A stretch of DNA of 64,000 bases from an uncultured Verrucomicrobiota bacterium (GTDB lineage: Bacteria; Verrucomicrobiota; Kiritimatiellia; JAAZAB01), in NCBI GenBank assembly GCA_964463985.1, contig CAYXEK010000007.1, positions 3,404 to 67,403 of the forward strand, given 5' to 3'. The first letter of the stretch is position 1. Each line of letters opens with the position of its first letter. Of the stretch, positions 7,927 to 56,199 are shown piece after piece. Under the pieces are notes generated by a model. That model did no database searches. It worked only from the letters and a program-made list of their open reading frames with translations, and was not told where the DNA came from. Position numbers and translations under genes: made by a program.

Positions 7927-9069
7927 TCATGATTGCAGCAAAACCTCCGACATGGCCCGGACATTTTCCGCCGAGGTCCCCGGCAAAATGGCGTTCCCCG
8001 GTCCATGCACATAGCGCCGGCCGGCGCTTTCCGCCAATACCCGCGCGCAGTAATCCCGCACCTGCCCGGCCGATTGCCGCAGCAGGACATCCGAGCTGAC
8101 ATTGCCCCAGACATTCAAATCCGGGTAACACGCGCGCAGCCTGCCGACTTCCATGCCGGCGTCGCGATCCACCTCGCCGTAATCGGTAAAACCCGCCTCC
8201 TGGAACAGCATGTCCGTCACTTTCCAAAGATTGCCGTCCGTGCGCCAGATGTAATGCAGGTTCAATTTCCGGCAATGCGCCGCCAGTTTTTTGACGCGCG
8301 GCAGCATCAACTGGCGGAAGATTTCCGGCGAATACAGCGGCCCGTTCTTGTCGGCCATGTCGCCGCCGCCGGTGGCAATGCGAAAGCCATTGGCGGCCAG
8401 GACATCCAAAGCCGCCAGCGACAATTCCAACTGGCAGTCCAGGATATCGGCCACCGCGCCGGGCTCCAGCAGCGAAGCCATCAGGGAAGCCTCGTCCACA
8501 CCGACGGCGATGCCGCCGCCGCGCGCGGCGTATGCGAATTGACCGGCCGCCATGTTCCGGAAGGCGATTTCATCCGCCGCGTTTTTTTCGCGGATCAGGG
8601 CCAGCCGTTGCGGCAAATCCGCCTGCAGGCGCCGGGCGCGCGCCGGCCAATCCGCGACCGTCACAGGCGGCTTGGTGTTTTCGATTTCCACCAGCCAGAG
8701 CGCTTTGGGGTCCCATTGCCAGACTTCATGCGTTCCGCCGGGATGCTCGAAAACAAAGGTATATTCATCCAATTGCCGGCTGGGCCGGCGTCCGCCCAGG
8801 TTGCGCAGCGGCAGGCGGATCACATCCCATTTCAATTCCCGGTGGATGGCGATCAAATCCTCAAACAATTTTTGTTCGAACTCGGCATGGGCGGCCTCGC
8901 CGTTCACCCAGGCCCGGCACTCGGCGAAGGATAGGGAATGATAGCCGGTATGCACCGGCCGGCCCAGGATGCCGGACGAGACGTCGCAGGCGATGGTCGG
9001 GCAATACATCGGCAGGCGATCCGCCGGCTTGCCGTCCAACACCGCCATCACCCGTTTTTCTGAATTCAT
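7927..9069 (-). CDS. Uroporphyrinogen decarboxylase (URO-D/MtaA) family protein, paralog 1
   Basis: 380 aa, URO-D/methylcobamide methyltransferase-like TIM barrel (C-terminal ...VWGNVSSDVLL... region). True start may be Met8 (MAVLDGKPADRLP, at 9048), which is about 25 nt after a TATAAT at 9071-9076 on the minus strand. Confidence 0.75.
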   Translation of the reverse strand: MNSEKRVMAVLDGKPADRLPMYCPTIACDVSSGILGRPVHTGYHSLSFAECRAWVNGEAAHAEFEQKLFEDLIAIHRELKWDVIRLPLRNLGGRRPSRQLDEYTFVFEHPGGTHEVWQWDPKALWLVEIENTKPPVTVADWPARARRLQADLPQRLALIREKNAADEIAFRNMAAGQFAYAARGGGIAVGVDEASLMASLLEPGAVADILDCQLELSLAALDVLAANGFRIATGGGDMADKNGPLYSPEIFRQLMLPRVKKLAAHCRKLNLHYIWRTDGNLWKVTDMLFQEAGFTDYGEVDRDAGMEVGRLRACYPDLNVWGNVSSDVLLRQSAGQVRDYCARVLAESAGRRYVHGPGNAILPGTSAENVRAMSEVLLQS

Positions 9070-9094
9070 TATAAATCGTTTGATGTGTTATGCC

Positions 9095-16163: not shown

Positions 16164-17429
16164 TCATTGCTCATCAATATTCATTTCCGCCCAAGCTTCT
16201 TGCAACGCCTGGTCGCGGCGAATTCGCATGCAATCAAAAGCCAGGTTCCCGACATGCCGGGCGTAAAACGCATGGGGAATGCGGTCCGGCCGCAGAACCC
16301 ATTCGCGCAGATTGTCGTCATACGGCGGCGGCCGGACCGGCCGACCGGACTTTTTGATTGTCATGGCGATATTCCTGAAAACCACATCTTCAATCGGCAT
16401 GCCGGGCAATCCGCAGATGAAAGCGCCACTTTCCGCAGTTATTTCCATATCATTGAAAACCAGATTTTTTATACATCCTTCCGCACCAGCGCCTGAGCCT
16501 ATCCAAAACGGGATGTAAGCATCCATAAGCATATTGGAAAAGCGAATGTTTTCGATATCTGTTCCCCGGCCGCTGCTAGGGCTCCAACGGGAAACAAAAT
16601 GTATACCTGTCCGACTGTTTCGGATAACGCAATTTGCGGCCGCGCAGTTGCGAACCACACCATTGCCCACACCTACCCTGAATGCGCATGTATCGGAGCT
16701 AAGCACGCAATTGGAGACAACCACATTCTCGCAGGCCATGTCCCGATGCTTCAGCCGCCCGTTATTGCCGCGGAAGGTAATACAATCATCACCGCTATCA
16801 ATAATGCAGTTCGTCACGACAACATTCCTGCAACTATCAATATCCAGCCCATCCCCGTTTGGTGTCGCGCGGGGGTTGCGGATACGGACATTGCGAATAA
16901 ATACGTCGGTGCAACCATGACAAAAACACGTCCAATACGTCGAATCATAGAGCGCCACTTCATCAATCTGAACGCGTTCGCACTCGCAGAAATAAATCAT
17001 CTGGCTCGGACGCTTGCCGTAAATGAAAATAAATTTGCCGGATTCTTCGTCTTTTTTGAAAAAAGCCCCGCTATTGCCGTCAATCGCTCCGCGCCCGCTG
17101 ATGGCAACATCCTTAACTTCCAAGCCGACTATCAGATGCCCCCCTGTCGTCTTTTCAATCGCGCTAGCTGAGTTCTGTGGAAAGCAGTTTTCGCCGCAAT
17201 AATCAACTAAATCCGGGCTACCCCGGATGATTGCTCCGGGCAACAGATGTAAATCCACACGATCTTTCAGAAACAGGGTTCCCGTCAGGAAAACTCCAGG
17301 GGGCACGATCACCCGCCCGCCGCCGCCCGCGGAACACCTGTCAATGGCGCTTTGGATGGAAGCCGTATCCTTGTGTGTTCCATCGCCAACAGCCCCATAA
17401 TCCCTAATGTCATGTAAATATGAAGTCAT
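16164..17429 (-). CDS. Glycoside hydrolase family 28 (polygalacturonase/rhamnogalacturonase-like)
   Basis: DYGAVGDGTHKDTASIQSAIDRC N-terminal motif and NPRATPNGDGLDIDSCRNVVVTNCIIDSGDDCITF catalytic region are GH28 signatures. AT-rich promoter-like region at 17430-17530. Confidence 0.9.
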   Translation of the reverse strand: MTSYLHDIRDYGAVGDGTHKDTASIQSAIDRCSAGGGGRVIVPPGVFLTGTLFLKDRVDLHLLPGAIIRGSPDLVDYCGENCFPQNSASAIEKTTGGHLIVGLEVKDVAISGRGAIDGNSGAFFKKDEESGKFIFIYGKRPSQMIYFCECERVQIDEVALYDSTYWTCFCHGCTDVFIRNVRIRNPRATPNGDGLDIDSCRNVVVTNCIIDSGDDCITFRGNNGRLKHRDMACENVVVSNCVLSSDTCAFRVGVGNGVVRNCAAANCVIRNSRTGIHFVSRWSPSSGRGTDIENIRFSNMLMDAYIPFWIGSGAGAEGCIKNLVFNDMEITAESGAFICGLPGMPIEDVVFRNIAMTIKKSGRPVRPPPYDDNLREWVLRPDRIPHAFYARHVGNLAFDCMRIRRDQALQEAWAEMNIDEQ

Positions 17430-38798: not shown

Positions 38799-38806
38799 AA
38801 GCACGC

Positions 38807-40492: not shown

Positions 40493-40869
40493 ACGGCGCA
40501 TTCAACGGCCGCCAACCGGACGCTCCCGCGCCGCTGATGATTATCGCGGCCGCGGTTTTGATCGCGGCAGGGGTGGGCGCGTCGGTCTGGACCTTGTGGC
40601 ATACCTTGCGCGCTCCTCCCGGCGCGGCGCCGGAAGCGCTGGCGGCGGCTAAGCCGGCGCCTGCCATGCCCGCCGCGGTACCCGCCCAAGCCGCGGCCCC
40701 GGCGCGGGGCGGCGAATTCACCACCGATTTTGAGCAGATGCGTCAGCGCGCACAAACCGCGCGGACGACGGCGGAAGTGCTGCGCCGCGCCAGGCGGGCC
40801 AACGCCAATTCCGCCTGGACCGAGGAAATGATCAAGGCCGTGGAACGCGGGGATGTAGCCATCCGCTGA
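40489..40869 (+). CDS. Small single-pass membrane protein (127 aa), hypothetical
   Basis: ATGA overlap with the previous stop. One TM (LMIIAAAVLIAAGVGASVW), Ala/Pro-rich linker, charged helical C-terminus. Could be a GspM/PilO-like accessory protein (inference). Confidence 0.5.
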   Translation: MNGAFNGRQPDAPAPLMIIAAAVLIAAGVGASVWTLWHTLRAPPGAAPEALAAAKPAPAMPAAVPAQAAAPARGGEFTTDFEQMRQRAQTARTTAEVLRRARRANANSAWTEEMIKAVERGDVAIR

Positions 40870-40908
40870 CGATAGGTCAGGCCGCGCGCCACAACGAACG
40901 GAAATATT

Positions 40909-41319
40909 ATGCCCGCCAAAGCGACAAGCGGATTCACCCTGGTGGAAATGATGGTAGCCGGAACGCTTTTTTTACTGTTCTGCGCGGGATTCTTCTCCGC
41001 CTACCTCGCGGCCATGGGCACGCAAAAAATGGCGGCGAATCATTATCGCGCGCTCTGCCTCGCCCGCAACCGCATTCAGCATGCGCGCGCCACGGAATAC
41101 TCCAGCCTGGAATTGCTGGCGGAATCTTCCAACGCCATTGACGCCTTCGGCAATCCCGACACGGCCGGCGGTTTTCAACGCACCACGACCATTATCCCGG
41201 CAACCAATACTCCGGCGAAGATTTCAGAATTTACCGTCCAGGTATGGTACCCGGCGCACCGCGGGCGTTTAAGCGCCGCGCCGGTGGAACAATCCACCCT
41301 GATCTCCGATCCGATGTAA
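40909..41319 (+). CDS. Prepilin-type protein (GspH/I-like)
   Basis: MPAKATSGFTLVEMMVAGTLFLLFCAGFF class-III signal. Confidence 0.8.
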   Translation: MPAKATSGFTLVEMMVAGTLFLLFCAGFFSAYLAAMGTQKMAANHYRALCLARNRIQHARATEYSSLELLAESSNAIDAFGNPDTAGGFQRTTTIIPATNTPAKISEFTVQVWYPAHRGRLSAAPVEQSTLISDPM

Positions 41320-41327
41320 GTCAAAAC

Positions 41328-43403: not shown

Positions 43404-43422
43404 ATGTCAGAAAGGAACAGCC

Positions 43423-44523
43423 ATGTCAAATAACACTTTGCGGCGCAACCGCGCCGGCCGCCGCGGCTCGGCGCTGGTGACGGTCATGTGCGTATCGGCG
43501 GTGCTGCTGCTGGCCAGCATGGTGATGGCTTACATCACCCGGCAGTCGGTGGCGCGAGCCCAGCGGATCAACACCGGCGCGCGGGCCCTAGCCGTCGCGG
43601 AAGCCGGCATTGCGGGCATGATCTCGCTGCTGAGCACCAATTACAACATGTGGCGGAACACCAACCACAGCGCCCAGTTTGGCGGCGGCTACTTTACCGT
43701 CAACAGCCTGACGCAATCCAACGGCAACGTGCTGCTGGTCAGCACCGGCGTGGTTGGCAGCGTGGCGCGCTCAACGATCATGGAACTGCTCGGCACTTAC
43801 CAGGACTGGAATGATTCGCTGTTTCAACTGGACGGCGTCATCCTGGCCGGCGGCGATGTGCGTTTTTCATCGGCCGCCTACGAAATCAACGGCAATGTGC
43901 ATGCCAACGGCAGCGTGATCGCCAACGGCGGCGCGAAAAACGGTGACTTCATCAGCAATGCGGTCATCACGGCTGTAGGCTCGGTCGCCGATTTGAACAA
44001 TGTTGACGCCACCAACGAAATCTCCGGCGCGCCCTTGCGGGTGCTGCCGACGTTCGATTTCGACAGCTACCGGCAACTGGCCATTTCCAACGGTTTGTAT
44101 TACAGCAATTCCATGACTTTCAACGGCTGGAATGCCTGGCCGTCCAACGGGGTGGTCTATGTCAATGGCGATGTGGTGATCGCCAATCACAGTTCTCTGG
44201 TGGGCACGCTCGTGGCCAACGGCAACATCCAGGTGCAGAATAATTTCACTCAGACCAATTTTCCGGGACAAACCAACTGGCCTTCCGTGATGAGCACCGG
44301 CAACGTCACGCTGCAAAACAAAGAGGATTATTACGGCATCATTTATGCCGCTTTGAATGTCAGCATCCAGAACAACATCACCTGCTATGGCGGCATTATC
44401 AGCGGCGGTTACACCGAGATTCAGAACCACGGCACCATGAACCAGCCGCCCGGCTACCCACCCTGGGACCCGCTCAATCCCTCCGTACCCCCGGAAGTCA
44501 TCGTCGGCGGCTGGCTGAAGTAA
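43423..44523 (+). CDS. GspK/PilX-like minor pilin (366 aa) with beta-solenoid-like Asn/Gly repeats
   Basis: RRGSALVTVMCVSAVLLLASMVMAYITRQSVARAQRINTGARALAVAEAG N-domain. Repeated NGNVxANGSVIANGG units. Confidence 0.7.
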   Translation: MSNNTLRRNRAGRRGSALVTVMCVSAVLLLASMVMAYITRQSVARAQRINTGARALAVAEAGIAGMISLLSTNYNMWRNTNHSAQFGGGYFTVNSLTQSNGNVLLVSTGVVGSVARSTIMELLGTYQDWNDSLFQLDGVILAGGDVRFSSAAYEINGNVHANGSVIANGGAKNGDFISNAVITAVGSVADLNNVDATNEISGAPLRVLPTFDFDSYRQLAISNGLYYSNSMTFNGWNAWPSNGVVYVNGDVVIANHSSLVGTLVANGNIQVQNNFTQTNFPGQTNWPSVMSTGNVTLQNKEDYYGIIYAALNVSIQNNITCYGGIISGGYTEIQNHGTMNQPPGYPPWDPLNPSVPPEVIVGGWLK

Positions 44524-44773: not shown

Positions 44774-45790
44774 ATGAGCCGACAAATCGCCCGCGACGCC
44801 ATCAATCTCAAACCCACGCCGCGCATCGCCCATACGGAATATTCGCTGGCGCATCACAAGGAATACGTTGCCAGGCTCCAGCCGCAATCCATCCTGGACG
44901 CCTGGGATATTGACTTCCCGTTCACCACCAATAACGGCCCCATCCGCTGGGCGGACGCCGGACGCGTCACCGACATGGGCCATGCCGGCTATGACGTGGA
45001 CGGCAGCGATTTCCGGCCGGTGGGCGATTGCCCGTTTACCGACGCGGAAGAGATTTACGAGTTCGATCCGGCGCGGGAATACGGTCTGCCCGGACACCGC
45101 GAACTGGTAAAATTTTATGAGGAGGCGCACCAGGCCCGCAACGCGTCGAATCCCAACCAACTCTGGCCGGGCGGTTATTATCCGACGGTCGTTTCCGGCG
45201 CCATTCAATCATTCGGCTGGGATATGCTGCTGCTGGCCGCCGCCGACCTGGAGCGCTTCGCCGAAGTCCTGCGCCGGTTTGCCGCCTATACCGCGCATTA
45301 CGTCGCCGCCTGGGCGGAAACTTCCATCGAGGTGTTCATCCAACACGACGACATGGTCTGGAGCGACGGGCCGTTCCTGCGCCCCGATTTTTACCGCGGC
45401 GTGATCTTCCCGCTGTACAAATCCATGTGGGCGCCGCTGAAAAAAGCCGGCAAGAAAATCATGTACTGCTCCGACGGCACCTTCGACATGTTCATGGAAG
45501 ACATCCTGGACTGCGGGGCCGACGGCCTGATTTTCGAGCCATCCAATGACTTCGCCGGGGTGGTCCGGCGTTTCGGCCGCCGCTGCTGCCTGGTGGGCAG
45601 CAAGGTGGATTGCCGCACCCTGGCCGCGGGCAACTGGGACAAGGTCAAGCAGGAAATGGACGATACCCTGGCGCTGGCCCGCGATTGCGCGGGACTGATC
45701 TGGGCGGTGGGCAACCACCTGGCGCCCAACATTTCCGATGAAATGATGGACCTGTACATCAACTACCTGCGCCGGCACTGGCAGCGCTGA
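44774..45790 (+). CDS. Uroporphyrinogen decarboxylase (URO-D/MtaA) family protein, paralog 2
   Basis: ATG 44774 with AAGGAG Shine-Dalgarno. TIM-barrel family features (KKIMYCSDGTFDMFMEDILDCGADGLIFEP). Confidence 0.8.
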   Translation: MSRQIARDAINLKPTPRIAHTEYSLAHHKEYVARLQPQSILDAWDIDFPFTTNNGPIRWADAGRVTDMGHAGYDVDGSDFRPVGDCPFTDAEEIYEFDPAREYGLPGHRELVKFYEEAHQARNASNPNQLWPGGYYPTVVSGAIQSFGWDMLLLAAADLERFAEVLRRFAAYTAHYVAAWAETSIEVFIQHDDMVWSDGPFLRPDFYRGVIFPLYKSMWAPLKKAGKKIMYCSDGTFDMFMEDILDCGADGLIFEPSNDFAGVVRRFGRRCCLVGSKVDCRTLAAGNWDKVKQEMDDTLALARDCAGLIWAVGNHLAPNISDEMMDLYINYLRRHWQR

Positions 45791-45796
45791 GGGCGG

Positions 45797-46607
45797 CTAT
45801 CTCCGCCCGCGCAGGATTTTCAGCGCCGCATCCACGCCGGCGTTTTCATGCACCAGCGCGCAGATGGCGCGCGTCATGCGCACCGGCGTGGCATGGCCGA
45901 AGGCATTGCGCCCCACCGCCACGCCGCTGCCGCCGGCGTCCAGGGAGTCGCGGATGATCTGCAGCAGCATGCGATCATCCGTCAGCTTTTCCCCGCCGGC
46001 AATCACCACCGGGATCGGACAGCCGGCCACCACTTTCTCGAACGATTTGGCCGACCCGGTATAGGTCACCTTGACGATATCCGCTCCCAGTTCCGCCGCA
46101 ATGCGCGCGGCATGCCGGACGCTGTCGGGATCGCTCTCGGACTTGATTTTCTTGCCGCGCGCGTACATCATCGCCAACAGGGGCATGCCCCACTCCATGC
46201 ATTGCACCGCAACCTGCCCCAAGTCGCGCAGCATGACCGATTCGTTCTCCGCGCCGATATTGATGTGCACACTGACGGCGTCGGCGCCGAATTTCAAGGC
46301 ATTTTCCACCGTGTTCACCAGCACCTTGGCGTTGGGATCGGGGCTCCAGACCGTGCTCCCGGAAAGGTGCAGGATCAAGCCCACATCCTTGCCCTGCCGG
46401 CGATGGCCGTGCAACGGCAGGCCGATATGCCCCAGCACCGCATTTGCGCCGCCTTCAGCAACGGCATTCACCATATCGCGCATGTTTTCGATGCCGGGTA
46501 TCGGGCCGACCGTCACCCCGTGGTCCATCGGCACAATGACCGCGCGCATGGTATCGCGGTTGATGATCCGCTCCAACCTGATCAACTTGCCTGGCATGAA
46601 TCCCATA
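45797..46607 (-). CDS. Class I aldolase of the DhnA/LsrF/AroA' (DeoC/FbaB) family
   Basis: Start ATG 46607 with GGGAGG Shine-Dalgarno. VKVTYTGS Schiff-base-Lys region. Family-typical length of ~270 aa. Confidence 0.8.
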
Positions 46608-46774
46608 TTAAAATTCCTCCCAAAAAAACGGACCGAATCTTCAGAGCCAACCGGCGCTCCCGCCGGCCGGATAAGCGCATTTACCCTTGGTGGTTCGCCG
46701 GCAACTGCATGCCCATGGCGCAATAGGTCGGAGGGGTAAAACATCCTGCGGCTGAAGTCACATCGGCGCGGCGC

Positions 46775-47373: not shown

Positions 47374-49812
47374 TTATTCGCGGATGCCGGCACGGATGCC
47401 CAGCACGGCGCGCAGGCCGGCTTGATGCGCATAGGGTCCGGCATCGCCGAATGGCGCCAGGCTGAAAATATCGGCGGGATTCTGCGTCGGCGCAGCCAGC
47501 AGGTAGCTGTAACGATATTCGCCCGCCCCGGCGGCGATCGCGGCCAGGTTCTTGATGTCATCGGCAACCGCGTCGGATACCGGCGGCGCCGCGGCGCCTG
47601 TCCGAAGCTTGTATAATTGCATCCCCAGACCGCCGAGTTCAACTTCGCCGCTGCGCGGCCGGTAAAAAGAGTCCGTCCCGCCGGCGCCGGCCAGGGCCGG
47701 CAAATGTTTCTGGAACACATCTTCCCAGGCCGCGGATCGAGGAATCCATGCCTCGCGGCCGCCGCCGCCATTGCGCACAATGGAAACCACATCGCGGGAC
47801 CAGTGCCAGGCGATGGCCATGCCCCAGCGCGGATCGTCGAAAAAGCGCGGCCGGTCAGGCTGTTCCGGCTGTTGTTCCATCGCCAAGGTCAAAGCCGCCC
47901 CCAGGAAATCATTCAGCAGGGCGTCGCCGCAATCGGTGTTGCCGGTGGCATAGGCCAGCGCCAGGAGCAGCATGTAGCGGCCGGTCCAATCAAAAAAACC
48001 TTCCGGATCGCCCTGTTCCAGGCAAACCGTCCGGGCCGCCAGCCATTCCTGGAACGCCGTCTCCGCCCAGGCGGGCGCAGCCCTTCCGGACGCTGGCAGG
48101 CAGACGGCGGCGAACTCTTCTGCGCGGTCCGCCGAGGCCACCCCCAGACTGTAATAAAGAATCATTAACCGGCGAAAGCGTTCTGCGTCCCGCACCTGCG
48201 CCGCCCGCCAACGCGCGGCGTCCCATGCCCGCCGCACGCGCCGCAGGCTGTCGGCCAGCCGGCGGCGTTCCTGCTCGGAAAACCGGATGATCTCCGTTTC
48301 CAGCCGGCGCCGGCCGACTTCCAACCCGGGGCGCACAAACGCCACGCGGATTTTATCCAGTTCGCCGGTTTCCTCGCTCGGCAACAACTCGCCCGCCGCG
48401 CCGGCAAAAACGATTTCCTCCGGATCATCGCCCCCGGGCAGCGGGCGGACAATCCGCCAGATCAGCATCAGACGCACCGCCATTCTGGGAGGAGGCTCAG
48501 GCTGGCCTTCCGGCGCCGGCTCGGACGGTCTCAAGGTACAGGTCAACGCGATTTCGGGCTGGGAGCCGGCGCCCGGCGGCGCGGCGGCAAGCCAGTCGCA
48601 TAAACGCGCCGCGGGCGGGACAGCCGCAGAGTCGCCCGGAGTCAGCATCGCCTCCAGTTCCCGCTCAAGCTCGCGCAGGCGGGCATTGCGTGCGTTTTCC
48701 TCCGGCAGGGCGGCGGCGTCCAGGGCCGCCTTGCGCCAGGCGGCGAATTCATGGCGGTAGGTCCAGACAAAGCCGAAGATGGCCGGCAGAGCGGCGGCGT
48801 CAAAGACAGCCTGTCGAGCCGCATTCGTGGGCGCCACTCTGCGCGCCTGCAAATCATTTTCCATTACCGCCAACATACGCGAACCGGCAATTTCATCCAA
48901 CGCAGCCGTCATGGCCGGTTCCGCCGCACGGCGAGTCCAGAGCGTGGATCCGATTGCCGCCAGCAGCCCGGGATGGGCTATGTTTTTCAAGGCAAACGTC
49001 CAGAGTTGATTGCGGGCGGCTGGGAAATCGGGCAACAGCCGCCGCAACTCGAAAGGCGCCGCGGCAATTTCCAATACCGGCGCCCCCAACGCCAGGGCCG
49101 TCTTGTCCGGGGAACTCACCAGGCCGGCGCGGCCCATGGCAGCGGCCAGACGGCTGTGCAAAGCCTCATCTGCCGGATCTGCGGAAGCCAGGGCGCCGGG
49201 CAATTCCGGGTCGGCATTAAACACCAGGGCTGCCAAGCCTGCTTCCGGCAGCCAATCGGGAAGGAGAGCCAGGTTGCTTAACCGGGTGTTGCCCAGGGCG
49301 GCCAGGGCCGCCGCGCCGCGCGCCAGGGGTGAATCGGCGCGCCGGAATCCCTCATGCAACCCCGCATATGCGGCGAAAAAATTATTGTAAAAAAACCAGG
49401 CCGCGGCGCTGATTCCGTCTGACGCCGACTCCAATTCCGCACCGGTCAAAAACCTGCCGGTATCCAAATCCTGGTACACTCGGGCCGTCCACCGCCGCGC
49501 CCGGGGGCGGCCGACGCCCAAGGCTTCGCGCACCGCCGCCTCGTCCACGGAGTAAAGGCCGGCCACGCGCGGCGCGCCCGCTTCCAGCAGCCGGGTGAAA
49601 GCCTTTTGCAGCGCCGCATCGCGTTCGGGATTCATGCTGAAAACCGGGGGGCAGGCGGCGCGCTCCGGCAGCCTGGCCGTAGCGGCGGAATATTCCGCCA
49701 GGCGCGTTAAATCTTCCTCCGTCCGCGGCGACTGCGCCCCCGCGGCCAGCCCCAGCGCCGTAGCCACGCAACCAACCAGAATTTGACCGTGATATTTAAA
49801 TCGCCGATTCAT
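47374..49812 (-). CDS. Hypothetical Ala-rich lipoprotein (812 aa)
   Basis: N-terminal signal with L-V-G-C lipobox (MNRRFKYHGQILVGC). No recognisable domain. Same strand as, and upstream of, the thioredoxin and aldolase genes. Confidence 0.65.
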   Translation of the reverse strand: MNRRFKYHGQILVGCVATALGLAAGAQSPRTEEDLTRLAEYSAATARLPERAACPPVFSMNPERDAALQKAFTRLLEAGAPRVAGLYSVDEAAVREALGVGRPRARRWTARVYQDLDTGRFLTGAELESASDGISAAAWFFYNNFFAAYAGLHEGFRRADSPLARGAAALAALGNTRLSNLALLPDWLPEAGLAALVFNADPELPGALASADPADEALHSRLAAAMGRAGLVSSPDKTALALGAPVLEIAAAPFELRRLLPDFPAARNQLWTFALKNIAHPGLLAAIGSTLWTRRAAEPAMTAALDEIAGSRMLAVMENDLQARRVAPTNAARQAVFDAAALPAIFGFVWTYRHEFAAWRKAALDAAALPEENARNARLRELERELEAMLTPGDSAAVPPAARLCDWLAAAPPGAGSQPEIALTCTLRPSEPAPEGQPEPPPRMAVRLMLIWRIVRPLPGGDDPEEIVFAGAAGELLPSEETGELDKIRVAFVRPGLEVGRRRLETEIIRFSEQERRRLADSLRRVRRAWDAARWRAAQVRDAERFRRLMILYYSLGVASADRAEEFAAVCLPASGRAAPAWAETAFQEWLAARTVCLEQGDPEGFFDWTGRYMLLLALAYATGNTDCGDALLNDFLGAALTLAMEQQPEQPDRPRFFDDPRWGMAIAWHWSRDVVSIVRNGGGGREAWIPRSAAWEDVFQKHLPALAGAGGTDSFYRPRSGEVELGGLGMQLYKLRTGAAAPPVSDAVADDIKNLAAIAAGAGEYRYSYLLAAPTQNPADIFSLAPFGDAGPYAHQAGLRAVLGIRAGIRE

Positions 49813-49858: not shown

Positions 49859-51130
49859 TCATTGGGCGGGCGCCGGGTCGGCTGTGCGCCGGCGGCACAA
49901 ATTGTCCCGGCGATACCGGGCGGGGGTCACCCCGGCCACGCGCTTAAACTGCTTGATGAAATAACTCTGGTCGCAAAACCCCGTGGCATAAGCGATTTCC
50001 GGACATGGCTGGTCGGTCTGCTCCAGCAACTGCATCGCCTGGCGCACCCGGCGCTGGGTCAAGTGCTGCAAAAAAGTCCTGCCGGTGCGCTGCTTCAGCA
50101 GGTGGCTGACATGGAAAACGCTCAAGCCCGCGGCGGCGGCGGTTTCCGCCAACGACAAGTTGCGCTGATAATGCCGGTTGATATGATCCAGCACCCGCAG
50201 CAAGGCCGGATGCCCGACGCCGTGGCTGCGGGAATAGATGCCGTCCATAAACGCGTCTAAAGCCTGCATCAAAACATGCGCCAGAGTTTCAAAGTCGCGC
50301 GCGGCGATTAACTTGCGCATCCATTGGTGGTTTTGCTCAAGGAGCGGCTCCATTTGCGCGTTATCTTCCACCGCCGCCCGCGTCAGGTAGCCCATCATCT
50401 CAATCGCCCGCGCGCGCAGCACCACCAGCTTGGGCGATGAAAGAAACATCACGCCCAGCGTCTCGTTCAGCACGCGGCGGGCGCCATTGCGGTCTCCGGA
50501 TTTAATGAGGGACAATAACAGGCGTTCCTTGTCCACCGGATAATGCGTCGGCGCAACCGCTCCGCGCTTGCGCTGTTCGTCCATGGCCTCGGCAATCTGG
50601 CGCTGCTGCACGGCTTTCCGGCGATTTTCGTCCAACAATTCAGGCTGCCAGCCGCTGATCTGGTAAAAAACTTCTGAAAGCGACCAGGCTGCCGCGCGGA
50701 TGCGCGCCGACGGCCAGAGCCGCAATCGCGCCACATAACGCCGGGCAGCCTCCGGCGCCGCTCCCTGGCGCAGCAAATCACGCAGCGCTTCCTCGTCCGC
50801 CCCTGCATGCGCCAGAACCTCGCCGCCCAGTATTCCGCCCGCCAGTTCCCGGCGGTTCACCAGCGCCACAATCCAACTGATAATGCCGCCGGCGCGGTAA
50901 AACACATACGGTTCGCCCCATTGCAGGGCTTCCTGCAGGCAACAGGCCAGAGCATCGTGATAAGGGGGCAAGCCCGGCAACTGGCCGGCCAAGCGCCCCG
51001 ATAAAAGCGGATGTCCATCCACTCCCACCGGCACCGCATGCAGCCTGAAATTACGATAATAATCCCGGCACACCGCCGCCAAAACGCGCCGCGCCGGGGT
51101 AAAAAGTTGTTTTTTCACAAATCCTCCCAT
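49859..51130 (-). CDS. AraC-family transcriptional regulator
   Basis: C-terminal dual HTH (LSLAETAAAAGLSVFHVSHLLKQRTG...IAYATGFCDQSYFIKQFKRVAGVTPARYRR). Divergent from the corrinoid-protein gene. Confidence 0.85.
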   Translation of the reverse strand: MGGFVKKQLFTPARRVLAAVCRDYYRNFRLHAVPVGVDGHPLLSGRLAGQLPGLPPYHDALACCLQEALQWGEPYVFYRAGGIISWIVALVNRRELAGGILGGEVLAHAGADEEALRDLLRQGAAPEAARRYVARLRLWPSARIRAAAWSLSEVFYQISGWQPELLDENRRKAVQQRQIAEAMDEQRKRGAVAPTHYPVDKERLLLSLIKSGDRNGARRVLNETLGVMFLSSPKLVVLRARAIEMMGYLTRAAVEDNAQMEPLLEQNHQWMRKLIAARDFETLAHVLMQALDAFMDGIYSRSHGVGHPALLRVLDHINRHYQRNLSLAETAAAAGLSVFHVSHLLKQRTGRTFLQHLTQRRVRQAMQLLEQTDQPCPEIAYATGFCDQSYFIKQFKRVAGVTPARYRRDNLCRRRTADPAPAQ

Positions 51131-51348
51131 AAAACAGCAAGATTGTTATAAAAAAAACTGTTTTTGTCTATACCAAATTAACCGGATAAGCTTTAATGCG
51201 CGCCAGTTTGGTTTGTTTGGTTGTCTGACGGAATTGGCGGAAGCGGCCAACCGCCCACCGCCGGGCGGCGAAACTCAATCATAAAATGCGCAATCGCGCA
51301 GTCGGGCAGCCATTGCGGCGCAAAAAAAGCGACAGGAAAGGACAGTAC

Positions 51349-51987
51349 ATGAGCAGCACTTTGGAACAAATCACGGAAAATCTGATCAAGGGCAAGGCTA
51401 ACGATGTCAAGGCGCTGGTGCAAAAAGCGCTGGACGAAAAAGCCAGCCCCGCCGACATTCTGAACAAGGGATTGCTTGCGGGCATGAGCGTGATCGGCGA
51501 GCGTTTTAAAAACAACGAAGTTTACGTGCCGGAGGTTTTGATTGCGGCGCGCGCGATGAAGGCGGGCATGGAAATTCTGAAACCTCTGCTGGCATCGGCA
51601 GGCGTCGAGCCGCTGGGAACGGTGGTGGTGGGGACGGTCAAGGGCGACCTGCATGATATCGGCAAGAATCTGGTTTGCATGATGCTGGAGGGCGCCGGCT
51701 TCAAAGTCGTGGATGCCGGCATCAATGTCGAGCCGGCTAAAATGGTGGAACTGGCCAAGGAAAACAACGCCGCCGTAATCGGCGCTTCCGCGCTGCTGAC
51801 CACCACGATGGTGAACATGAAAAACGTGGTGGAAAGCGTCAAGTCCGCCGGGCTGTCAGGCAAGATCAAGGTCATGATCGGCGGCGCGCCGGTTACCCAG
51901 GCTTTTGCCGACGAAATCGGCGCGGACGGCTATGCTCCGGACGCCGCCTCAGCCGCCGACCTGGCCAAAACTCTGCTTAAGCAATAA
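51349..51987 (+). CDS. Cobalamin-binding corrinoid protein (MtaC/MtbC-type)
   Basis: B12-binding_2 cap domain plus Rossmann B12 domain with DxHxxG (GDLHDIGKNLV) and AVIGASALLTTTM / VMIGGAPV motifs. ATG 51349 after GGAAAGGACAG. Confidence 0.9.
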   Translation: MSSTLEQITENLIKGKANDVKALVQKALDEKASPADILNKGLLAGMSVIGERFKNNEVYVPEVLIAARAMKAGMEILKPLLASAGVEPLGTVVVGTVKGDLHDIGKNLVCMMLEGAGFKVVDAGINVEPAKMVELAKENNAAVIGASALLTTTMVNMKNVVESVKSAGLSGKIKVMIGGAPVTQAFADEIGADGYAPDAASAADLAKTLLKQ

Positions 51988-52011
51988 CCAGCGGAACCGC
52001 GGCAAAACACA

Positions 52012-52056
52012 GGGCGCTTGTTCCGCCGTCCAGGCGGGCAGGCGCCCTTTTTTTTA
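52012..52056 (+). terminator. Rho-independent terminator for the corrinoid-protein gene
   Basis: GGGCGC...GGCGCCC stem with inner CCGCC/GGCGG, followed by T8 (52048-52055). Overlaps the stop codon of the convergent GH29 gene. Confidence 0.55.
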
Positions 52057-53412
52057 ACGGGCCTGACCGTCCAACCAGACGGATTCGCCGCGCCGTCGCG
52101 CCCAGGGCACGTAACACAGGGGATGGTCGCTCCACAGGGGCGATTTGCCGACGGACGGATTCACCGCCGGCGGCGCATCGCATTCGAGCCTGATCACCGG
52201 GAACAGCATTTGCTCCATTTGCGGCGGCAATCCGTTGATCGTCAATTCCCAATCATTCTGGCTGACGGATAACGGGTAATCCGACCCCAGCAACGCGGCC
52301 CGCCGTACCCGGGTTTGCAGCCAGGTTAGACGCAGCGACGGCCGCCGGTCCCAGAAACGGAGAATCAAGTACAGGTTGTTGCCGCGACAGGACAGGCGTC
52401 CCAGCGTAACGACGTCCGGCAATTCCCGAGTTTCCGTGCCGTAAACGGCTTCGCCGTTGATCCGCAGCCAATCGCCAATCACCCCGGCGCGCTCGACAAA
52501 TGCCGGCGGCATCGCGCCGTCGGCGTCCGGCCCGACATTCAGCAGCAGATTCCCGCCCTGGCTGGCGGCTTCCACCAGCATGTCGAGCAGCAAGTCCGCC
52601 GGGCGCCAATGCTCGCCGACCGTGTACCCCCACAGGCGCCAGGTGCTGACCTGGCAGGACTCCCACAGGCGGTCCGGCTCGGCCTTGATGTGCTGTTCCG
52701 GGGTGCCGAAATCGCCGAGTTCCCGGGAATGCCCGGCGTCTTCCAGCATGTTCTGGTAGTGATCCGGTCCTGCAGGCTTGACCGCGGGCTTGCCGAGCCG
52801 GTTGTTGATCAGAATTTCCGGCTGCAGGCCGCGCATCATGCGCACCAGTTCCTCCGAACGCCAATCCTCGCGGGTGCGCGGCCAGGAACCATCGAACCAG
52901 ATCACGTCAATCTTGCCGTAATTGGTCAGCAACTCGCGCACCTGGCCGTGCGCGTATTCGCAAAACGTGCGCCAGCCGTCCGGGTTGATATCCGGCCCTT
53001 CCAGGTAAGCCGGCACGCGGAAATCCGCGAGCGAATAATACAAGCCCACCCGCAGGCCGGCGGCGCGGAAGGCCTCCACGTACTCGGCCACGAAATCGCG
53101 CTTAGCCGCCTGCGCCACGCTGGTGTAATCCGTCAGCCGCGAATTCCACAGGCAATAACCGTCATGGTGCCGGGTGGTCAACACCGCGTAGCGGAATCCG
53201 CCGGCGACGGCGATTTCCGCCCAGCGCCGCGCGTCGAACTTTTGCGGCTGCCAGCGGCAGGCAGCCGCGGCGTATTCCCTCTGATCCAGCCATTCGCGGA
53301 TCAGGACCTGCTCGCCACGCCCCACCTGCGCGTAGGGCCCCCAGTGGATGAACATCCCGAAGCGCGCCGCGGGAAACCAGCGCCATTTTTCCGGGATACT
53401 GATGTTGGACAT
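52054..53412 (-). CDS. Alpha-L-fucosidase, glycoside hydrolase family 29
   Basis: FGMFIHWGPYA and TTRHHDGYCLWNS catalytic-region signatures. ATG at 53412. Confidence 0.9.
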   Translation of the reverse strand: MSNISIPEKWRWFPAARFGMFIHWGPYAQVGRGEQVLIREWLDQREYAAAACRWQPQKFDARRWAEIAVAGGFRYAVLTTRHHDGYCLWNSRLTDYTSVAQAAKRDFVAEYVEAFRAAGLRVGLYYSLADFRVPAYLEGPDINPDGWRTFCEYAHGQVRELLTNYGKIDVIWFDGSWPRTREDWRSEELVRMMRGLQPEILINNRLGKPAVKPAGPDHYQNMLEDAGHSRELGDFGTPEQHIKAEPDRLWESCQVSTWRLWGYTVGEHWRPADLLLDMLVEAASQGGNLLLNVGPDADGAMPPAFVERAGVIGDWLRINGEAVYGTETRELPDVVTLGRLSCRGNNLYLILRFWDRRPSLRLTWLQTRVRRAALLGSDYPLSVSQNDWELTINGLPPQMEQMLFPVIRLECDAPPAVNPSVGKSPLWSDHPLCYVPWARRRGESVWLDGQAR

Positions 53413-53445
53413 GATTGATTCCCTTCTCAGATGAGCCATTTGCAT

Positions 53446-53552
53446 AAGTCTCGGTCAACGAAGAAGTCGTCCCTCCAAAATGGAAAAACAACCCGTTTTT
53501 GGAGGGTCGGGTTCCACCCCGACCTTGTGGCAAGGGTTTTTGAAATTTGTTC
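53446..53552. mobile_element. MITE-like element copy D (reverse orientation, one terminus truncated)
   Basis: Matches the reverse complement of copy C over aagtctcgg...cgtccctccaaaatggaaaaacaacccgtttttggagggtcgggtt(c)caccccgacc...tttttgaaatt. Lies 34 nt upstream of the GH29 start codon. Confidence 0.65.
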
Positions 53553-53603
53553 AGATGTAATAATTACCCGGTCCAAAGCTTGGCAAACGTGCGCGCAGCC
53601 GGT

Positions 53604-54686
53604 TCAATACCGCGCCAGTTCCAGACCGCGATCGCGGAAATAGATGAAAGTTTCGTAATCAACTTCGGGCGGGGTCGAGTGGTCGGTAGACAGAATATAG
53701 GGGGTCCGGGTGGCCATTAACGGCAAAATCTTTTTGCGCAATTCGGCGTCAATCCGCGCGCGATCATTGGATATCAGCTCGCGGATGTCAATATTGCCCA
53801 TGAATCCCAGGCGGTCGCCGTACAACTTGTTCAACCGCACCATGTCCATGCCGGCCTTGACCTCCATCGCCTGCAGCATGTCGATGCCGGCCTCGATCAT
53901 GCCAGGCACGAGCGGCTCGACGAACCCGCAGGAATGCATGATCACGCGCATGCCGCGCTGGTGCGCCCAGGCGATGGTGCGTTTATGCGCGGGCATGATC
54001 AATTCCCGGTACATTGCCGGCGACATGAATGGCTTTTCCTTGAATCCCATGTCTTCCCAGAACCAGATGCCGTCCGGCAGACCCTCCTCGGCAAACAGCA
54101 TTTCCCAGAGGTTAATGGTCATTTCGGCATAAAAGGAAGCCATTTCCAGCACCCACTCCGGATCGAGCGCCATGCCGACCAGAAGGTGTTCATGTCCGCA
54201 GACCGGGTGGAGCTGCTCGAAAACATTCGTGCCGAACCACATGAAAAAACGGTTTTTGTCGGCCGCCGCCTGGCGGGCCAAACGGTAGGCTTCAAAATTC
54301 ACCCGGCGCCGGTCGGGCTTTAAAAACGGCTTGATATGCTGTTCCCAGCCCGCGCGATCCCGCACCAGGAAGTCCACATGCTCCGGCGTGCCGGACTTGG
54401 CTTTCCACTGGCGTAAGACTGCGCCGTTGCCGTCGCGCACGAGCTTGGTGTCGGCGTCCTCCTCCAAAATCGTTGGGGGAACGTCAAGATTGGCGATCAT
54501 GTTAAAGCCGCCGGACCCGACAATATCCATATTGAAAAACTCGCTCAATCCCTTAGGCGGGAGATGCCCCTCGGCTGTCCAGCGCCGGGTGGTTTCTCCC
54601 CAGAAAGACTCGCTGAAGGCGGCGCGATCGGCCGGCCGCCGTTCCAGCAAATTGCCTACGCGTTCCCGTGAAGTCATTTCCGGCAT
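53604..54686 (-). CDS. Uroporphyrinogen decarboxylase (URO-D/MtaA) family protein, paralog 3
   Basis: Family-typical C-terminal half (RVIMHSCGFVEPLVPGMIEAGIDMLQ...GDRLGFMGNID). Confidence 0.8.
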   Translation of the reverse strand: MPEMTSRERVGNLLERRPADRAAFSESFWGETTRRWTAEGHLPPKGLSEFFNMDIVGSGGFNMIANLDVPPTILEEDADTKLVRDGNGAVLRQWKAKSGTPEHVDFLVRDRAGWEQHIKPFLKPDRRRVNFEAYRLARQAAADKNRFFMWFGTNVFEQLHPVCGHEHLLVGMALDPEWVLEMASFYAEMTINLWEMLFAEEGLPDGIWFWEDMGFKEKPFMSPAMYRELIMPAHKRTIAWAHQRGMRVIMHSCGFVEPLVPGMIEAGIDMLQAMEVKAGMDMVRLNKLYGDRLGFMGNIDIRELISNDRARIDAELRKKILPLMATRTPYILSTDHSTPPEVDYETFIYFRDRGLELARY

Positions 54687-54745: not shown

Positions 54746-55753
54746 CTAGACATGAAGTTCCGCCACCGTAAAACCGGCGGCCGCCAGCATGGCCAGGTCG
54801 GCGGCGTGACCCTGTCCGGGCGTAGTCAGGTAATCGTTGGTAAACATCGAGTTGGCGGCATAGAGGGCCAGCGGCTGCATCGGCCCCAGAACCGCCTCGC
54901 GCCCGCCGGCAATCCGGATTTCGCGGTCCGGCAAAACGAACCGGAACATCGCCAGAATCCGCAATCCTTCCATGGGCGACAGGCGCGGCCGGCCGGCCAA
55001 CCGGGTGCCGGCGCGCGGGTCAAGCAGGTTGACGGGCACGGAATCGGCGTCAATTTCACGCAAGGCGAATGCCAGTTCCACGCGGTCGGCCGGCGTTTCC
55101 CCCATGCCCAGCAATCCGCCGCTGCATAATTCCATCCCGGCGCGCTTGGCGGCCCGCGCAGAAGCCACGCGGTCGTCATAAGTATGAGTTCGACAGATTT
55201 CCGGGTAAAACCGGCGGGATGTTTCAAGGTTATGGTTATAGCGATCCACGCCCGCCGCTTTCAGACGCCGGGCCTGGACGTCATCCAGCAATCCCATCGA
55301 GGTGCAGACCTGCAAATGCGGGTGCCGGCGCTTGATCAGACTGGCGGCGGCGCAGATGTTCTGCAGGGCGGCTTCGTCCGGCCCGCGGCCGCTGAGCACG
55401 ATGCAATAACGCACCGCCCGGGCCTGCACGGCAGATTCCGCGCCGGCGGCGATTTCCTCCGCCGATTGCAACGGGTATTGCGGCGCGCCGGAAATTGCCG
55501 CCGCGCTCTGGCTGCAGTAAGCGCAGTCTTCCGAACACAATCCGCTCTTGGCGTTATGTAACAGGTGCAGGCGGACGCCCCGGCCGAAATATTTTTTGCG
55601 GATGGCAAATGCGGCGGACAGCAAGTCCAGCAGGTTGTCATCCGGCGTATCCAGGATGGACAGGGCCGCGGGACGTTCAACGGACTCCCCTGCCAGCACG
55701 CGCGCGCTTAAAGCGCGCCAATCAGATTCAGGCTTTGCGGTTGCAATTGACAT
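54746..55753 (-). CDS. bioB: Biotin synthase
   Basis: CSEDCAYCSQS radical-SAM motif and YNHNLETS. Start at the internal ATG 55753. The track ORF extends to 56194 only because it reads through an upstream tandem repeat. Confidence 0.9.
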   Translation of the reverse strand: MSIATAKPESDWRALSARVLAGESVERPAALSILDTPDDNLLDLLSAAFAIRKKYFGRGVRLHLLHNAKSGLCSEDCAYCSQSAAAISGAPQYPLQSAEEIAAGAESAVQARAVRYCIVLSGRGPDEAALQNICAAASLIKRRHPHLQVCTSMGLLDDVQARRLKAAGVDRYNHNLETSRRFYPEICRTHTYDDRVASARAAKRAGMELCSGGLLGMGETPADRVELAFALREIDADSVPVNLLDPRAGTRLAGRPRLSPMEGLRILAMFRFVLPDREIRIAGGREAVLGPMQPLALYAANSMFTNDYLTTPGQGHAADLAMLAAAGFTVAELHV

Positions 55754-55972
55754 GCGGATGGGGATACCCTGTTTTGCGCAGGATGTCAAGGTAGAATTCG
55801 CCCCGCCCCACCCGCGGGGGCGCATCTGCGATTCGTTGCAGGCAAGCAGGCACCGGCAATGCGATTGATTGCTTGCGTACAGTTTTTGGCCGCGCAGCGG
55901 TTTTGGAGTGCGCAGGCTCGACTGCGCTTTTATAGGGTTGCGTTTAACCCGCAAGACCTGAAGCCGTAGCAG

Positions 55973-56099
55973 AAAAGCGGCGTCAAACCGCCGCAGTCCA
56001 AAGCAGCTTTCCTGCGCAAAAGCGGCGTCAAACCGCCGCAGTCCAAAGCAGCTTCGCCGCGCAAGAGCGGCGTCAATCCCTGCGGAACAGACTTGCGCC
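55973..56099. repeat. 45-bp tandem repeat (2 perfect + 1 degenerate unit) containing hairpin gcggcg-tcaaac-cgccgc
   Basis: aaaagcggcgtcaaaccgccgcagtccaaagcagctt at 55973-56009 and 56018-56054 (37/37 identical), separated by 8-nt linkers (tcctgcgc / cgccgcgc). Degenerate third unit at 56063-56099. Intergenic between bioB and the CPA2 gene. Confidence 0.8.
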
Positions 56100-56127
56100 C
56101 GAGCAAGTCTGGCTAAAGTCAACAACC

Positions 56128-56156
56128 TTGACATCCGGCTGCCGGCATTTATAATG
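56128..56156 (+). promoter_or_regulatory. Consensus sigma70 promoter for the CPA2 antiporter gene
   Basis: TTGACA (56128-56133), 16-nt spacer, TATAAT (56150-56155). ATG at 56200. Confidence 0.6.
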
Positions 56157-56199
56157 CTGGCGCTGTTTTGGATGCTGCTGGCAGAGGCAAACATTTTCC

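Follow-up and report, generated by a model that had tools for sequence, protein, structure and literature searches.

We analysed a 64-kb stretch of DNA from an uncultured Kiritimatiellia bacterium (hereafter the window), in which the gene for a stand-alone corrinoid protein lies between a divergently transcribed AraC-family regulator gene and a convergent array encoding a GH29 alpha-L-fucosidase and a 360-residue protein of the uroporphyrinogen decarboxylase (URO-D)/MtaA fold, which we call URO-D-360. The conserved core of this region in relatives is the regulator–corrinoid pair, and not a unit of corrinoid, URO-D and GH29 genes. The explanation that we favour, tentatively and as a little short of probable, is that the corrinoid protein serves a hub module whose partners are encoded elsewhere in the genome, and that URO-D-360 is a corrinoid-dependent, metal-assisted methyltransferase joining a methyl donor or acceptor to this hub.

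Three features of the system are new: the wide conservation of the regulator–carrier pair in bacteria of the Planctomycetota–Verrucomicrobiota–Chlamydiota (PVC) group and in Clostridia, a URO-D family that has a His-Cys-Glu-His site and is linked to metK, metXW and split MetH, and the recurrent pairing of this family with cytoplasmic GH29 enzymes. Our literature search found no paper describing the conservation of the pair, the URO-D-360 family or the GH29 pairing. Corrinoid-dependent methyltransferase systems as such are known, and so are their sharing of a carrier and their control by AraC/PocR regulators. Whichever explanation of the locus holds, a regulator–corrinoid pair with varying partners extends the notion of a shared corrinoid hub from marine roseobacters to anaerobic PVC bacteria and Clostridia.

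The corrinoid carrier and its regulator

The longest open reading frame (ORF) of the corrinoid gene opens at 51286, and translation almost certainly begins with the ATG at 51349 (gene 51349..51987, + strand), because a GGAAAGGA ribosome-binding site is found there and more than 100 homologs have 210–212 residues. The resulting protein of 212 residues is predicted to be a cobamide-binding methyl carrier. It joins a cap domain (PF02607, B12-binding_2, 4e-24) to a Rossmann domain (PF02310, B12-binding, 3e-27), as is typical of stand-alone carriers of about 210 residues, and its translation reads the complete DxHxxG...SxL...GG signature: the lower-ligand histidine motif DLHDIG at residue 100 (51646..51663, +), SAL at residue 147 (51787-51795) and GG at residue 178 (51880-51885). 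These domains and motifs bear out the first-pass annotation, which had called it a bona fide cobalamin-binding corrinoid protein with a DxHxxG motif and a cap domain. More generally, our Pfam and NCBIfam profile scans of the large window ORFs recovered the genes that this annotation had named where it had placed them, or a few codons off, and the profiles it had proposed all matched (PF02310 and PF02607 for the corrinoid protein, PF01208 for the URO-D paralogs).

At the level of subfamily, the protein narrowly misses TIGR02370 (203.9 bits against a cutoff of 215.3) and reaches 205–208 bits with MtgC models (cutoffs 310–370) and 150 bits with MetH models. Its best solved relative is 1Y80 (6e-66), followed by MttC (7XCN) and the corrinoid protein of an O-demethylase (4JGI, 1e-36), and its orthologs are 80–94% identical in Kiritimatiellia and Lentisphaerota. 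The case that had been named as fatal to the earlier proposal, a MetH domain detached by a sequencing error, is rejected: the ORF is complete, with its own ribosome-binding site and stop codon and homologs of the same length, and its scores with MtgC, TIGR02370 and 1Y80 are higher than those with MetH. The protein thus stands as a genuine stand-alone carrier, cognate to methyltransferases.

The divergent gene (49859..51130, −) encodes a predicted regulator of 423 residues, in which a PocR sensor domain at the N-terminus (6e-07; 29.8 bits, cutoff 23.9) precedes an AraC helix-turn-helix at the C-terminus (HTH_18 7e-23, HTH_AraC 2e-16), that is, the layout of MtaR, beside a corrinoid gene. A spacer of 218 bp separates the two start regions, and 66 bp separate the corrinoid gene from the convergent GH29 gene, both orientations being as previously described. 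Alignment of the window with five related loci (L012, L007, L003, L005 and L013) left a single conserved intergenic block, the element ACAGCAAGATTGTTATAAAAAAAACTGTTTTTGTCTATAC of about 40 nt (51134..51173, no strand assigned), which overlaps a sigma-70-like match on the − strand. The element is AT-rich, lies 4–43 nt upstream of the regulator start codon and contains two imperfect direct repeats of the form ACnG...TTGTnTATA; it is common to the six loci though their AraC proteins are as little as 56% identical. It may function as an operator or promoter of the regulator–corrinoid pair. No riboswitch, for cobalamin or otherwise, reached its gathering threshold anywhere in the 64 kb, and between 49800 and 56400 none appeared even at E ≤1.

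Our survey of the corrinoid family covered 84 loci, namely 80 genomic loci with 58–94% identical corrinoid proteins, three look-up loci and a 21-kb slice of the window, in all of which the neighbouring ORFs were clustered (about 1.9 Mb of loci were fetched overall). Enough sequence for counting regulators was present in 72 loci, and downstream genes were counted in 67; 24 loci are of the divergent-AraC type. Of the 72, 42 have an AraC/PocR gene no more than 1.2 kb upstream of the corrinoid gene. They come from PVC bacteria, Clostridia and Spirochaetota; the regulator gene points away from the corrinoid gene in PVC bacteria and in the same direction in Clostridia. It is this pair that is conserved, in place of the unit of corrinoid, URO-D and GH29 genes that had been suggested earlier.

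The genes downstream of the carrier are far more diverse. A gene for a homocysteine S-methyltransferase (PF02574) and/or a pterin-binding methyltransferase (PF00809) follows on the same strand at 15 of the 67 loci (9 of the 24 with divergent AraC), FTHFS is often the next gene (L015, L019, L022, L043), and FTHFS, FolD and MTHFR occur in several loci. A URO-D gene is found within 3 kb downstream at 11 of the 67 loci, and at three of the 24 (the window, L012 and L007). Taken as a density, URO-D superfamily genes are about 5-fold more frequent around the corrinoid family (21.7 per Mb) than among the non-anchor genes of the URO-D-360 loci used as control (4.5 per Mb). In L089 the corrinoid gene, three URO-D genes, RACo and DUF2284 stand beside a GH29 gene; RACo directly follows the corrinoid gene in L030 and is nearby in several Clostridial loci.

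Even among close relatives the slot downstream of the corrinoid gene varies, with L003, L005, L007 and the window all different. The corrinoid protein of L007 is 88% identical to that of the window and is followed by a true H-x-C...C MtaA-like gene and DUF2284, neither of which is present in the window; none of the window paralogs is an ortholog of this MtaA-like gene (identity at most 22%). Immediately after these genes, L007 carries SLFN/AlbA_2-HATPase and AAA_13/SMC-like genes (11760-15790), possibly an inserted defence-type island. We also considered and rejected BioB convergent to the corrinoid gene as the ancestral layout, the radical-SAM genes found there in L003 and L005 not being BioB orthologs.

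In Clostridia, a stand-alone trio of RACo, AraC/PocR and corrinoid genes occurs in L068, L081 and L085, and no URO-D, HcyMT or pterin-binding methyltransferase gene was detected adjoining it in these three loci. The next gene is a RecD2-like helicase in L081, L082 and L085, L082 having too little upstream sequence to show RACo. The genes after the corrinoid gene in Clostridial loci are not supported as substrate-side methyltransferases (methyltransferase I, MT I): one has no solved relative and another is the RecD2-like helicase. A possibility is that the regulator–carrier pair also has a sensing role.

We read the corrinoid protein as a putative shared hub, the methyl carrier of a split-MetH/methyl-tetrahydrofolate (methyl-THF) system, because its ortholog in Kiritimatiellia and Lentisphaerota is followed by PF02574, PF00809, FTHFS, FolD and MTHFR genes. 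Since the downstream genes differ between loci, one carrier ortholog would pair with different methyltransferases in each genome. A precedent exists in MtgC, which was shown genetically to serve both a split methionine synthase and glycine-betaine demethylation (PMC12478193).

Within the 64-kb window, tblastn with proteins from related loci and Pfam scans of large ORFs found no Pterin_bind, HcyMT, RACo, FTHFS or MTHFR gene. PF00809 and PF02574, the pterin and homocysteine modules of a split methionine synthase, are both absent, as is DUF2284, and the earlier statement that no MtrH-like or RamA-like gene is present was confirmed by the same searches. The four-component O-demethylase set is accordingly incomplete in the window, which holds the corrinoid protein and candidate MT I genes without methyltransferase II (MT II) or RACo/RamA. 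Both missing parts do occur in related loci, Pterin_bind in L043 and others and RACo in L030.

URO-D-360, its paralogs and their neighbours

URO-D-360 (53604..54686, −) matches PF01208 (3.6e-14) in its C-terminal half only. The family is large, with 3811 matching database proteins; the best 120 of these are 58–97% identical and come from Kiritimatiellia, Lentisphaerota, Planctomycetota, Hydrogenedentota, the Fibrobacterota–Chlorobiota–Bacteroidota (FCB) group and the Firmicute Mahella, with identities of 58–76% across phyla. The AlphaFold (AF2) model (pLDDT 94.6) has a URO-D-type (beta/alpha)8 fold, retrieving 4ay8 and 4ay7 in Foldseek with E 5e-12 and template modelling (TM) scores of 0.70–0.74. 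The TM score is about 0.70 to both UROD and MtaA, and 0.52 to MetE. Against solved structures, the family profile retrieves only MtaA (4ay7, E 0.03, with H-x-C aligned on H-x-C) and one HemE.

The window holds two further URO-D paralogs, at 44774..45790 (+) and 7927..9069 (−), and the three share only 21–26% identity. None is a true HemE: PROSITE signatures 1 (PxWxMRQAGR) and 2 are both absent, no HemE model matches, and PF01208 aligns with the paralogs only at profile positions ~164-346 (51–53 bits) rather than over its full length. Their best NCBIfam matches are instead MtaA/CmuA models at sub-threshold scores, TIGR01463 giving 40.6 bits (1.8e-10) for URO-D-360 and 23.7 and 31.4 bits for the other two, against a cutoff of 235.4. 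Membership of the heme pathway, which would have undone the earlier proposal, can therefore be set aside. The MtaA-like character assigned to the paralogs stands for URO-D-360, which keeps an MtaA/MetE-type site, and not for the other two, which have no His-x-Cys.

In 31 diverse members of the URO-D-360 family, residues E211, D212, H251, S252, C253, E275, K277, D335 and H336 are invariant. This invariance marks H251 (53934-53936), C253 (53928-53930), E275 (53862-53864) and D335/H336 (53679-53684) as candidate metal ligands. The zinc-site pattern of MtaA, His-x-Cys...Cys, is altered: H251-S-C253 is followed by H336, preceded by D335, at the place of the second cysteine. The resulting spacing, H-x-C-x21-E-x60-H, equals that which we take to be the zinc site of MetE (H641, C643, E665 and C726 of the E. 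coli enzyme). From this arrangement we infer that URO-D-360 binds zinc through a His-Cys-Glu-His(Asp) site. The variant metal sites of the paralogs do not decide their chemistry, because a His-Cys-Cys set marks S/Se-methyltransferases of the superfamily while O-methyltransferases swap the zinc cysteines for carboxylates or non-ligands, as described by Kountz and Balskus (PMC10418091).

The neighbours of URO-D-360 were collected from 46 loci that each span 5 kb or more and together make up 673 kb; the loci were obtained by five look-ups and a metagenome scan. metK lies directly upstream in six loci, and at 3 kb in two more, and a metX–metW fusion lies directly downstream in five PVC loci. In a neighbour-joining tree, sequences paired with metK are spread over a deep clade and those paired with metXW over a PVC clade sister to the window sequence; both linkages have therefore been retained over long divergence. 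In L117 a single strand carries URO-D-360, the corrinoid gene, HcyMT (PF02574), MTHFR and Pterin_bind, the first two genes being 37 bp apart. This arrangement favours a substrate-side (MT I-like) role for URO-D-360, compatible with the first-pass proposal. With thousands of sequences, an MtaA/MetE-like site and links to metK and metXW, the family is directly testable.

In one Kiritimatiellia clade (L176/L177, L009, L102, L105, L106), URO-D-360 follows an arsenic-resistance-like set of genes for an ArsR-type HTH protein, an S-adenosylmethionine (SAM) methyltransferase, a P-type ATPase, LMWPc and SBF, the last two of which may correspond to ArsC and Acr3. L176 has a second URO-D gene, of the HxxC...H type, directly upstream of URO-D-360. 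These surroundings hint that URO-D-360 could act with methylated metalloids in this clade. Enolase-superfamily neighbours had raised the idea of a link to the non-phosphorylative fucose pathway, which was not supported: the neighbour in Mahella is ManD/galactonate-dehydratase-like, and the one linked to metK is muconate-cycloisomerase/racemase-like, not a fuconate dehydratase.

The GH29 gene (52054..53445, −; Alpha_L_fucos, PF01120, 1e-77, 262 bits against a cutoff of 25.2) encodes no signal peptide and lies downstream of URO-D-360 on the same strand, after a gap of 158 bp in the window and L012 and of 194 bp in L114. L126 shows the order metK, URO-D-360, one further gene, GH29, and in L043 a 31%-identical URO-D with the same His-Ser-Cys (HSC) and His pattern directly precedes GH29. 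In the window, L114 and L043, the GH29 proteins are all short, have no signal peptide (and are hence predicted to be cytoplasmic) and show 38–45% identity to one another. Every GH29 gene in the fetched loci is close to a URO-D gene. For the two cases other than the window with GH29 within 2 kb downstream, among 46 anchors, the Poisson probability is ~0.01 at the background of the corrinoid loci (~1.7 GH29 per Mb) and ~0.17 at 8 GH29 per Mb, a density plausible for fucoidan degraders. The association of URO-D-360 or HSC-type proteins with GH29 is suggestive, not established. Of the URO-D/fucosidase link proposed earlier, the part that stood is an HSC-type URO-D directly upstream of a cytoplasmic GH29 in three lineages; conservation does not extend to GH29 and the corrinoid gene, which are close together in only three independent lineages among the 84 loci.

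The strongest single support for the first-pass idea is L043, where one strand encodes three URO-D proteins (one His-Cys-Cys, two of HSC type), GH29, GH38, AraC/PocR, the corrinoid protein, an MFS transporter, Pterin_bind, FTHFS, FolD and MTHFR. The literature search, in turn, returned no link of URO-D-family proteins to fucosidases, methylated sugars or polysaccharide demethylation.

The two distant paralogs present a different picture. The protein encoded at 44774 (338 residues; PF01208 3.6e-14) is 23% identical to URO-D-360, reads C-S-D...N-H at the metal-site positions and belongs to a family 55–84% identical within PVC bacteria. Relatives in L172–L175 (three distinct contexts, L173 repeating L172) are found with sulfatases, an overlapping GH35, a second URO-D, PfkB and small divergent AraC genes; no corrinoid, activase or MT II gene occurs in these three contexts. 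The family thus recurs in PVC glycan loci, as a separate class of URO-D-fold proteins in sugar catabolism. The protein encoded at 7927 (380 residues; PF01208 1e-13) reads R-T-D...N-A, without metal ligands at the aligned positions, and its gene lies 42 kb from the corrinoid gene. It forms part of an array (7927-17429, −) that encodes a GH28 (16164..17429, −, by Pfam), a 668-residue protein of no assigned family, a 1118-residue heparinase-II/III-like protein, a HEAT-repeat protein, the URO-D paralog and a second unassigned protein of 605 residues, and that looks like a polyuronide-degradation operon with a URO-D-fold protein inside. The earlier view of both paralogs as partners of the corrinoid protein was not supported, given the missing His-x-Cys and, for the 44774 family, its sulfatase/GH35 loci free of corrinoid genes. 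Judging from these sequences, we would place the two outside the corrinoid module, while action in trans is conceivable.

Explanations of the locus

In the explanation that we favour, two units lie side by side: the regulator–corrinoid pair and, on the opposite strand, a bioB–URO-D-360–GH29 array. The AraC activator, through its PocR small-molecule sensor, would control the divergent corrinoid gene from the conserved promoter element. The corrinoid protein would carry methyl groups by alternating between its Co(I) and methyl-Co(III) states and act as the hub of a split methionine-synthase/methyl-THF system, comparable to the roseobacter MtgC, with its partner genes elsewhere in the genome. The metal of URO-D-360, putatively zinc, would activate a heteroatom for methyl transfer to or from this carrier. 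URO-D-360 would in this way link the methionine/THF pool of methyl groups to a small molecule that gives or takes them and that the fucosidase may release. This link is suggested by the genes found beside URO-D-360 in other loci, namely metK, metXW, a split-MetH operon and a cytoplasmic GH29.

Several observations weigh against this explanation. Outside the window lineage, only one of the 46 URO-D-360 loci (L117) has a corrinoid gene within 10 kb, and in the metagenome-assembled genome (MAG) GCA_964475405.1 the URO-D-360 ortholog (L176) and the regulator–corrinoid pair (L005) are on separate contigs. In the window itself, URO-D-360 is convergent with the corrinoid gene, not co-transcribed with it, and flanked by the unrelated housekeeping gene bioB, and no MT II, HcyMT or activase is visible. 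With the second zinc cysteine replaced by His/Asp and scores below cutoff, the protein falls outside the MtaA family proper. Other neighbours are heterogeneous (GH172/DUF2961 in three loci, sulfatases, the arsenic-resistance-like set), and the GH29 pairing rests on three lineages and loses significance if the genomic density of GH29 is high. The scattered linkage, the convergent orientation and the presence of bioB upstream equally favour the absence of any coupling, in which the corrinoid protein would work with a remote split MetH or other methyltransferases and URO-D-360, 1.6 kb away by chance, would be a corrinoid-independent enzyme (a hydrolase, a decarboxylase or a metalloid-handling protein). 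The variable slot downstream of the corrinoid gene and the mosaic of housekeeping and glycan genes in the window point the same way. Such an accident is possible, but on balance we do not expect it: L117 provides a second, independent tight linkage inside a split-MetH operon, a conserved set of MtaA/MetE-type ligands would make little sense without methyl-transfer chemistry, and URO-D genes are enriched around the corrinoid family.

The same ligand set could also belong to a methyl-corrinoid:homocysteine methyltransferase of URO-D lineage, a core MetE/Mes analogue with the neighbouring corrinoid protein as donor. The MetE-like spacing, thiol alkylation being the chemistry of MtaA, the very high conservation typical of a core enzyme, and the metK and metXW pairs kept across deep clades are in line with this possibility, and there are known core methionine synthases that take the methyl group from a methyl-corrinoid (PMC7857596, PMC7005905). 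Such an enzyme would be redundant in L117, however, where the PF02574 protein stands beside URO-D-360 in the same operon, a juxtaposition that argues against it, and PVC relatives encode HcyMT beside the same corrinoid ortholog. Together with the change of the second cysteine to histidine, the glycan or sulfatase contexts of the gene in Mahella and several other loci, and the GH29 pairing that it leaves unexplained, this makes a methionine synthase quite improbable. The original proposal, an anaerobic O-demethylase for methyl-ether sugars such as 2-O-methyl-fucose in which the corrinoid protein is served by three URO-D paralogs, each an MT I for a sugar set free by glycosidases close by, draws on L043, whose single strand holds a complete route from methyl group through THF to formate with URO-D, GH29 and GH38, and on L089. 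The recurrence of an HSC/His-type URO-D gene just ahead of one for a cytoplasmic GH29 (window, L114 and L043) also fits, as do the glycan loci of the distant paralogs, and the variant sites are compatible with it since URO-D O-methyltransferases replace zinc cysteines (PMC10418091). Nevertheless, we consider it unlikely in this form, as GH29 accompanies the corrinoid family so rarely, the 44774 family stands without corrinoid, activase or MT II genes, the 7927 protein has no candidate ligand, the longest-kept neighbours of URO-D-360 are metK and metXW and not glycosidases, and no URO-D protein has been linked to sugar demethylation in the literature that we searched.

A narrower version, doubtful to a similar degree, would make URO-D-360 and its HSC/His-type relatives the substrate-side methyltransferases of an anaerobic, cobamide-dependent sugar O-demethylase acting on methylated fucose-containing oligosaccharides with a dedicated cytoplasmic GH29, the methyl group passing to the AraC/PocR-controlled corrinoid protein and then to homocysteine or THF. 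To our knowledge, no mechanism has been described for the anaerobic removal of sugar methyl ethers (2-O-methyl-fucose, 2-O-methyl-xylose, 6-O-methyl-galactose, 4-O-methyl-glucuronate), and the one route of sugar demethylation known to us requires oxygen (cytochrome P450). If this version were true, glycan methyl ethers would feed methionine and SAM synthesis in PVC bacteria, part of the B12 demand of glycan-degrading PVC bacteria would be explained, and many unannotated "uroporphyrinogen decarboxylase family" genes in PVC genomes would gain a role.

The wider window and comparison with known systems

The window has a G+C content of about 61%, and its proteins have their closest relatives among sequences labelled Kiritimatiellia, Lentisphaerota or Verrucomicrobiota. 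The closest locus, L012 (Kiritimatiellia MAG AnMBR.bin297), has the identical gene order with 85–97% protein identity, and because of this recurrence the module is not an assembly artefact. The biotin synthase gene bioB (54746..56194, −; TIGR00433, 370 bits against a cutoff of 225) lies 59 bp upstream of URO-D-360 on the same strand; the two are possibly co-transcribed and probably functionally unrelated. Its ORF has 482 codons, of which the biotin synthase model matches only from residue 172, and the L012 ortholog has 347; the long N-terminal part, reaching within 6 bp of the start of a divergent Na+/H+ exchanger gene (56200), is probably an over-extended ORF.

On the other side of the pair, a gene for an 812-residue protein with a signal-like N-terminal segment and no Pfam or NCBIfam match (47374..49812, −) has counterparts at the equivalent position in L007 and L012 (73–81% identical), and ORFs of 825–830 residues occupy this position in L003, L004 and L005. 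The protein keeps its place beside the AraC/PocR–corrinoid pair in these five Kiritimatiellia loci while the other flank differs each time, the synteny being limited to close relatives. Further away, the gene at 45797-46744 (−), a "DeoC/LacD aldolase", scores above the cutoffs for 2-amino-3,7-dideoxy-D-threo-hept-6-ulosonate (ADH) synthase (NF005556, 385.9 bits against 241; TIGR01949, 364.5 against 299). We take this synthase to catalyse the opening step of the DAHP-independent, archaeal-type pathway for aromatic amino acids, whose presence in a bacterium would presumably be unusual. Upstream of the module, a cluster at 38163-44523 (+) encodes several prepilin-type N_methyl proteins, one with DUF4900 and one that weakly resembles GspK; genes related to the first two kinds occur in L003 and L005 at 15–20 kb of the locus, downstream of the corrinoid gene. 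Finally, a radical SAM/SPASM protein with a C-terminal SEC-C motif adjoins a DUF1846 protein (34250-35590, −, and 35684-37201, +).

Among known proteins, HemE shares the (beta/alpha)8 fold of URO-D-360 (TM about 0.70) and differs from it by the two PROSITE signatures, by the C-terminal limit of the PF01208 match and by lacking the Cys/His site. With MtaA, MtbA and MtsA, URO-D-360 has in common the fold (TM 0.70 to 4ay7), the aligned H-x-C and a corrinoid protein nearby, whereas its identity to MtaA is only about 13–14% and the second zinc cysteine is His336, accompanied by Asp335. The enrichment of URO-D superfamily genes around the corrinoid family also recalls the MtaA/Mlp systems, and L089, L049 and L072 look like true Mlp clusters. 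The window itself differs from a type 1 mlp cluster (PMC10418091), having no RACE/RamA gene, no Mlp2/Mlp3 pair and no His-Cys-Cys URO-D.

As to regulation, MtaR is an AraC/PocR activator that heads the corrinoid-dependent mta (methanol methyltransferase) operon of Eubacterium limosum (PMC13602510). The window regulator likewise combines a PocR sensor with an AraC HTH directly beside the corrinoid gene of a methyltransferase system; MtaR, in contrast, is the first gene of its operon, while the window regulator is divergent and no MtaB-type gene is present in the window. The aryl O-demethylases (OdmB/VdmB; Acetobacterium, Desulfitobacterium) offer a parallel for the substrate side, as their MT I are URO-D-superfamily proteins with non-Cys zinc ligands, their corrinoid protein (4JGI) is related to that of the window, and in L043 a pterin-binding MT II feeds THF one-carbon enzymes. 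They differ in that the window has no MT II or activating enzyme, and the putative substrate would be a sugar or another small molecule instead of a phenyl methyl ether.

A parallel for the carrier is the split methionine synthase of roseobacters (MtgC/MtgD/MtgE/MtgB), reportedly described by Price et al. in 2018. Both systems have a stand-alone B12 carrier with separate pterin- and homocysteine-binding methyltransferases adjoining it, here in the orthologous PVC loci, and L117 mirrors the MtgB-C-E-(MetF)-D layout with URO-D-360 in the position of MtgB. The substrate-side enzyme would, however, have the URO-D fold here, as opposed to the MttB family of MtgB; the hosts belong to the anaerobic PVC bacteria, the carrier shows a closer relationship to 1Y80/MtgC of Firmicutes, and the pterin and homocysteine modules are missing from the window. 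The two would also share the use of one carrier by several methyltransferases, a reading that comes from gene neighbourhoods in PVC bacteria and from genetics for MtgC (PMC12478193).

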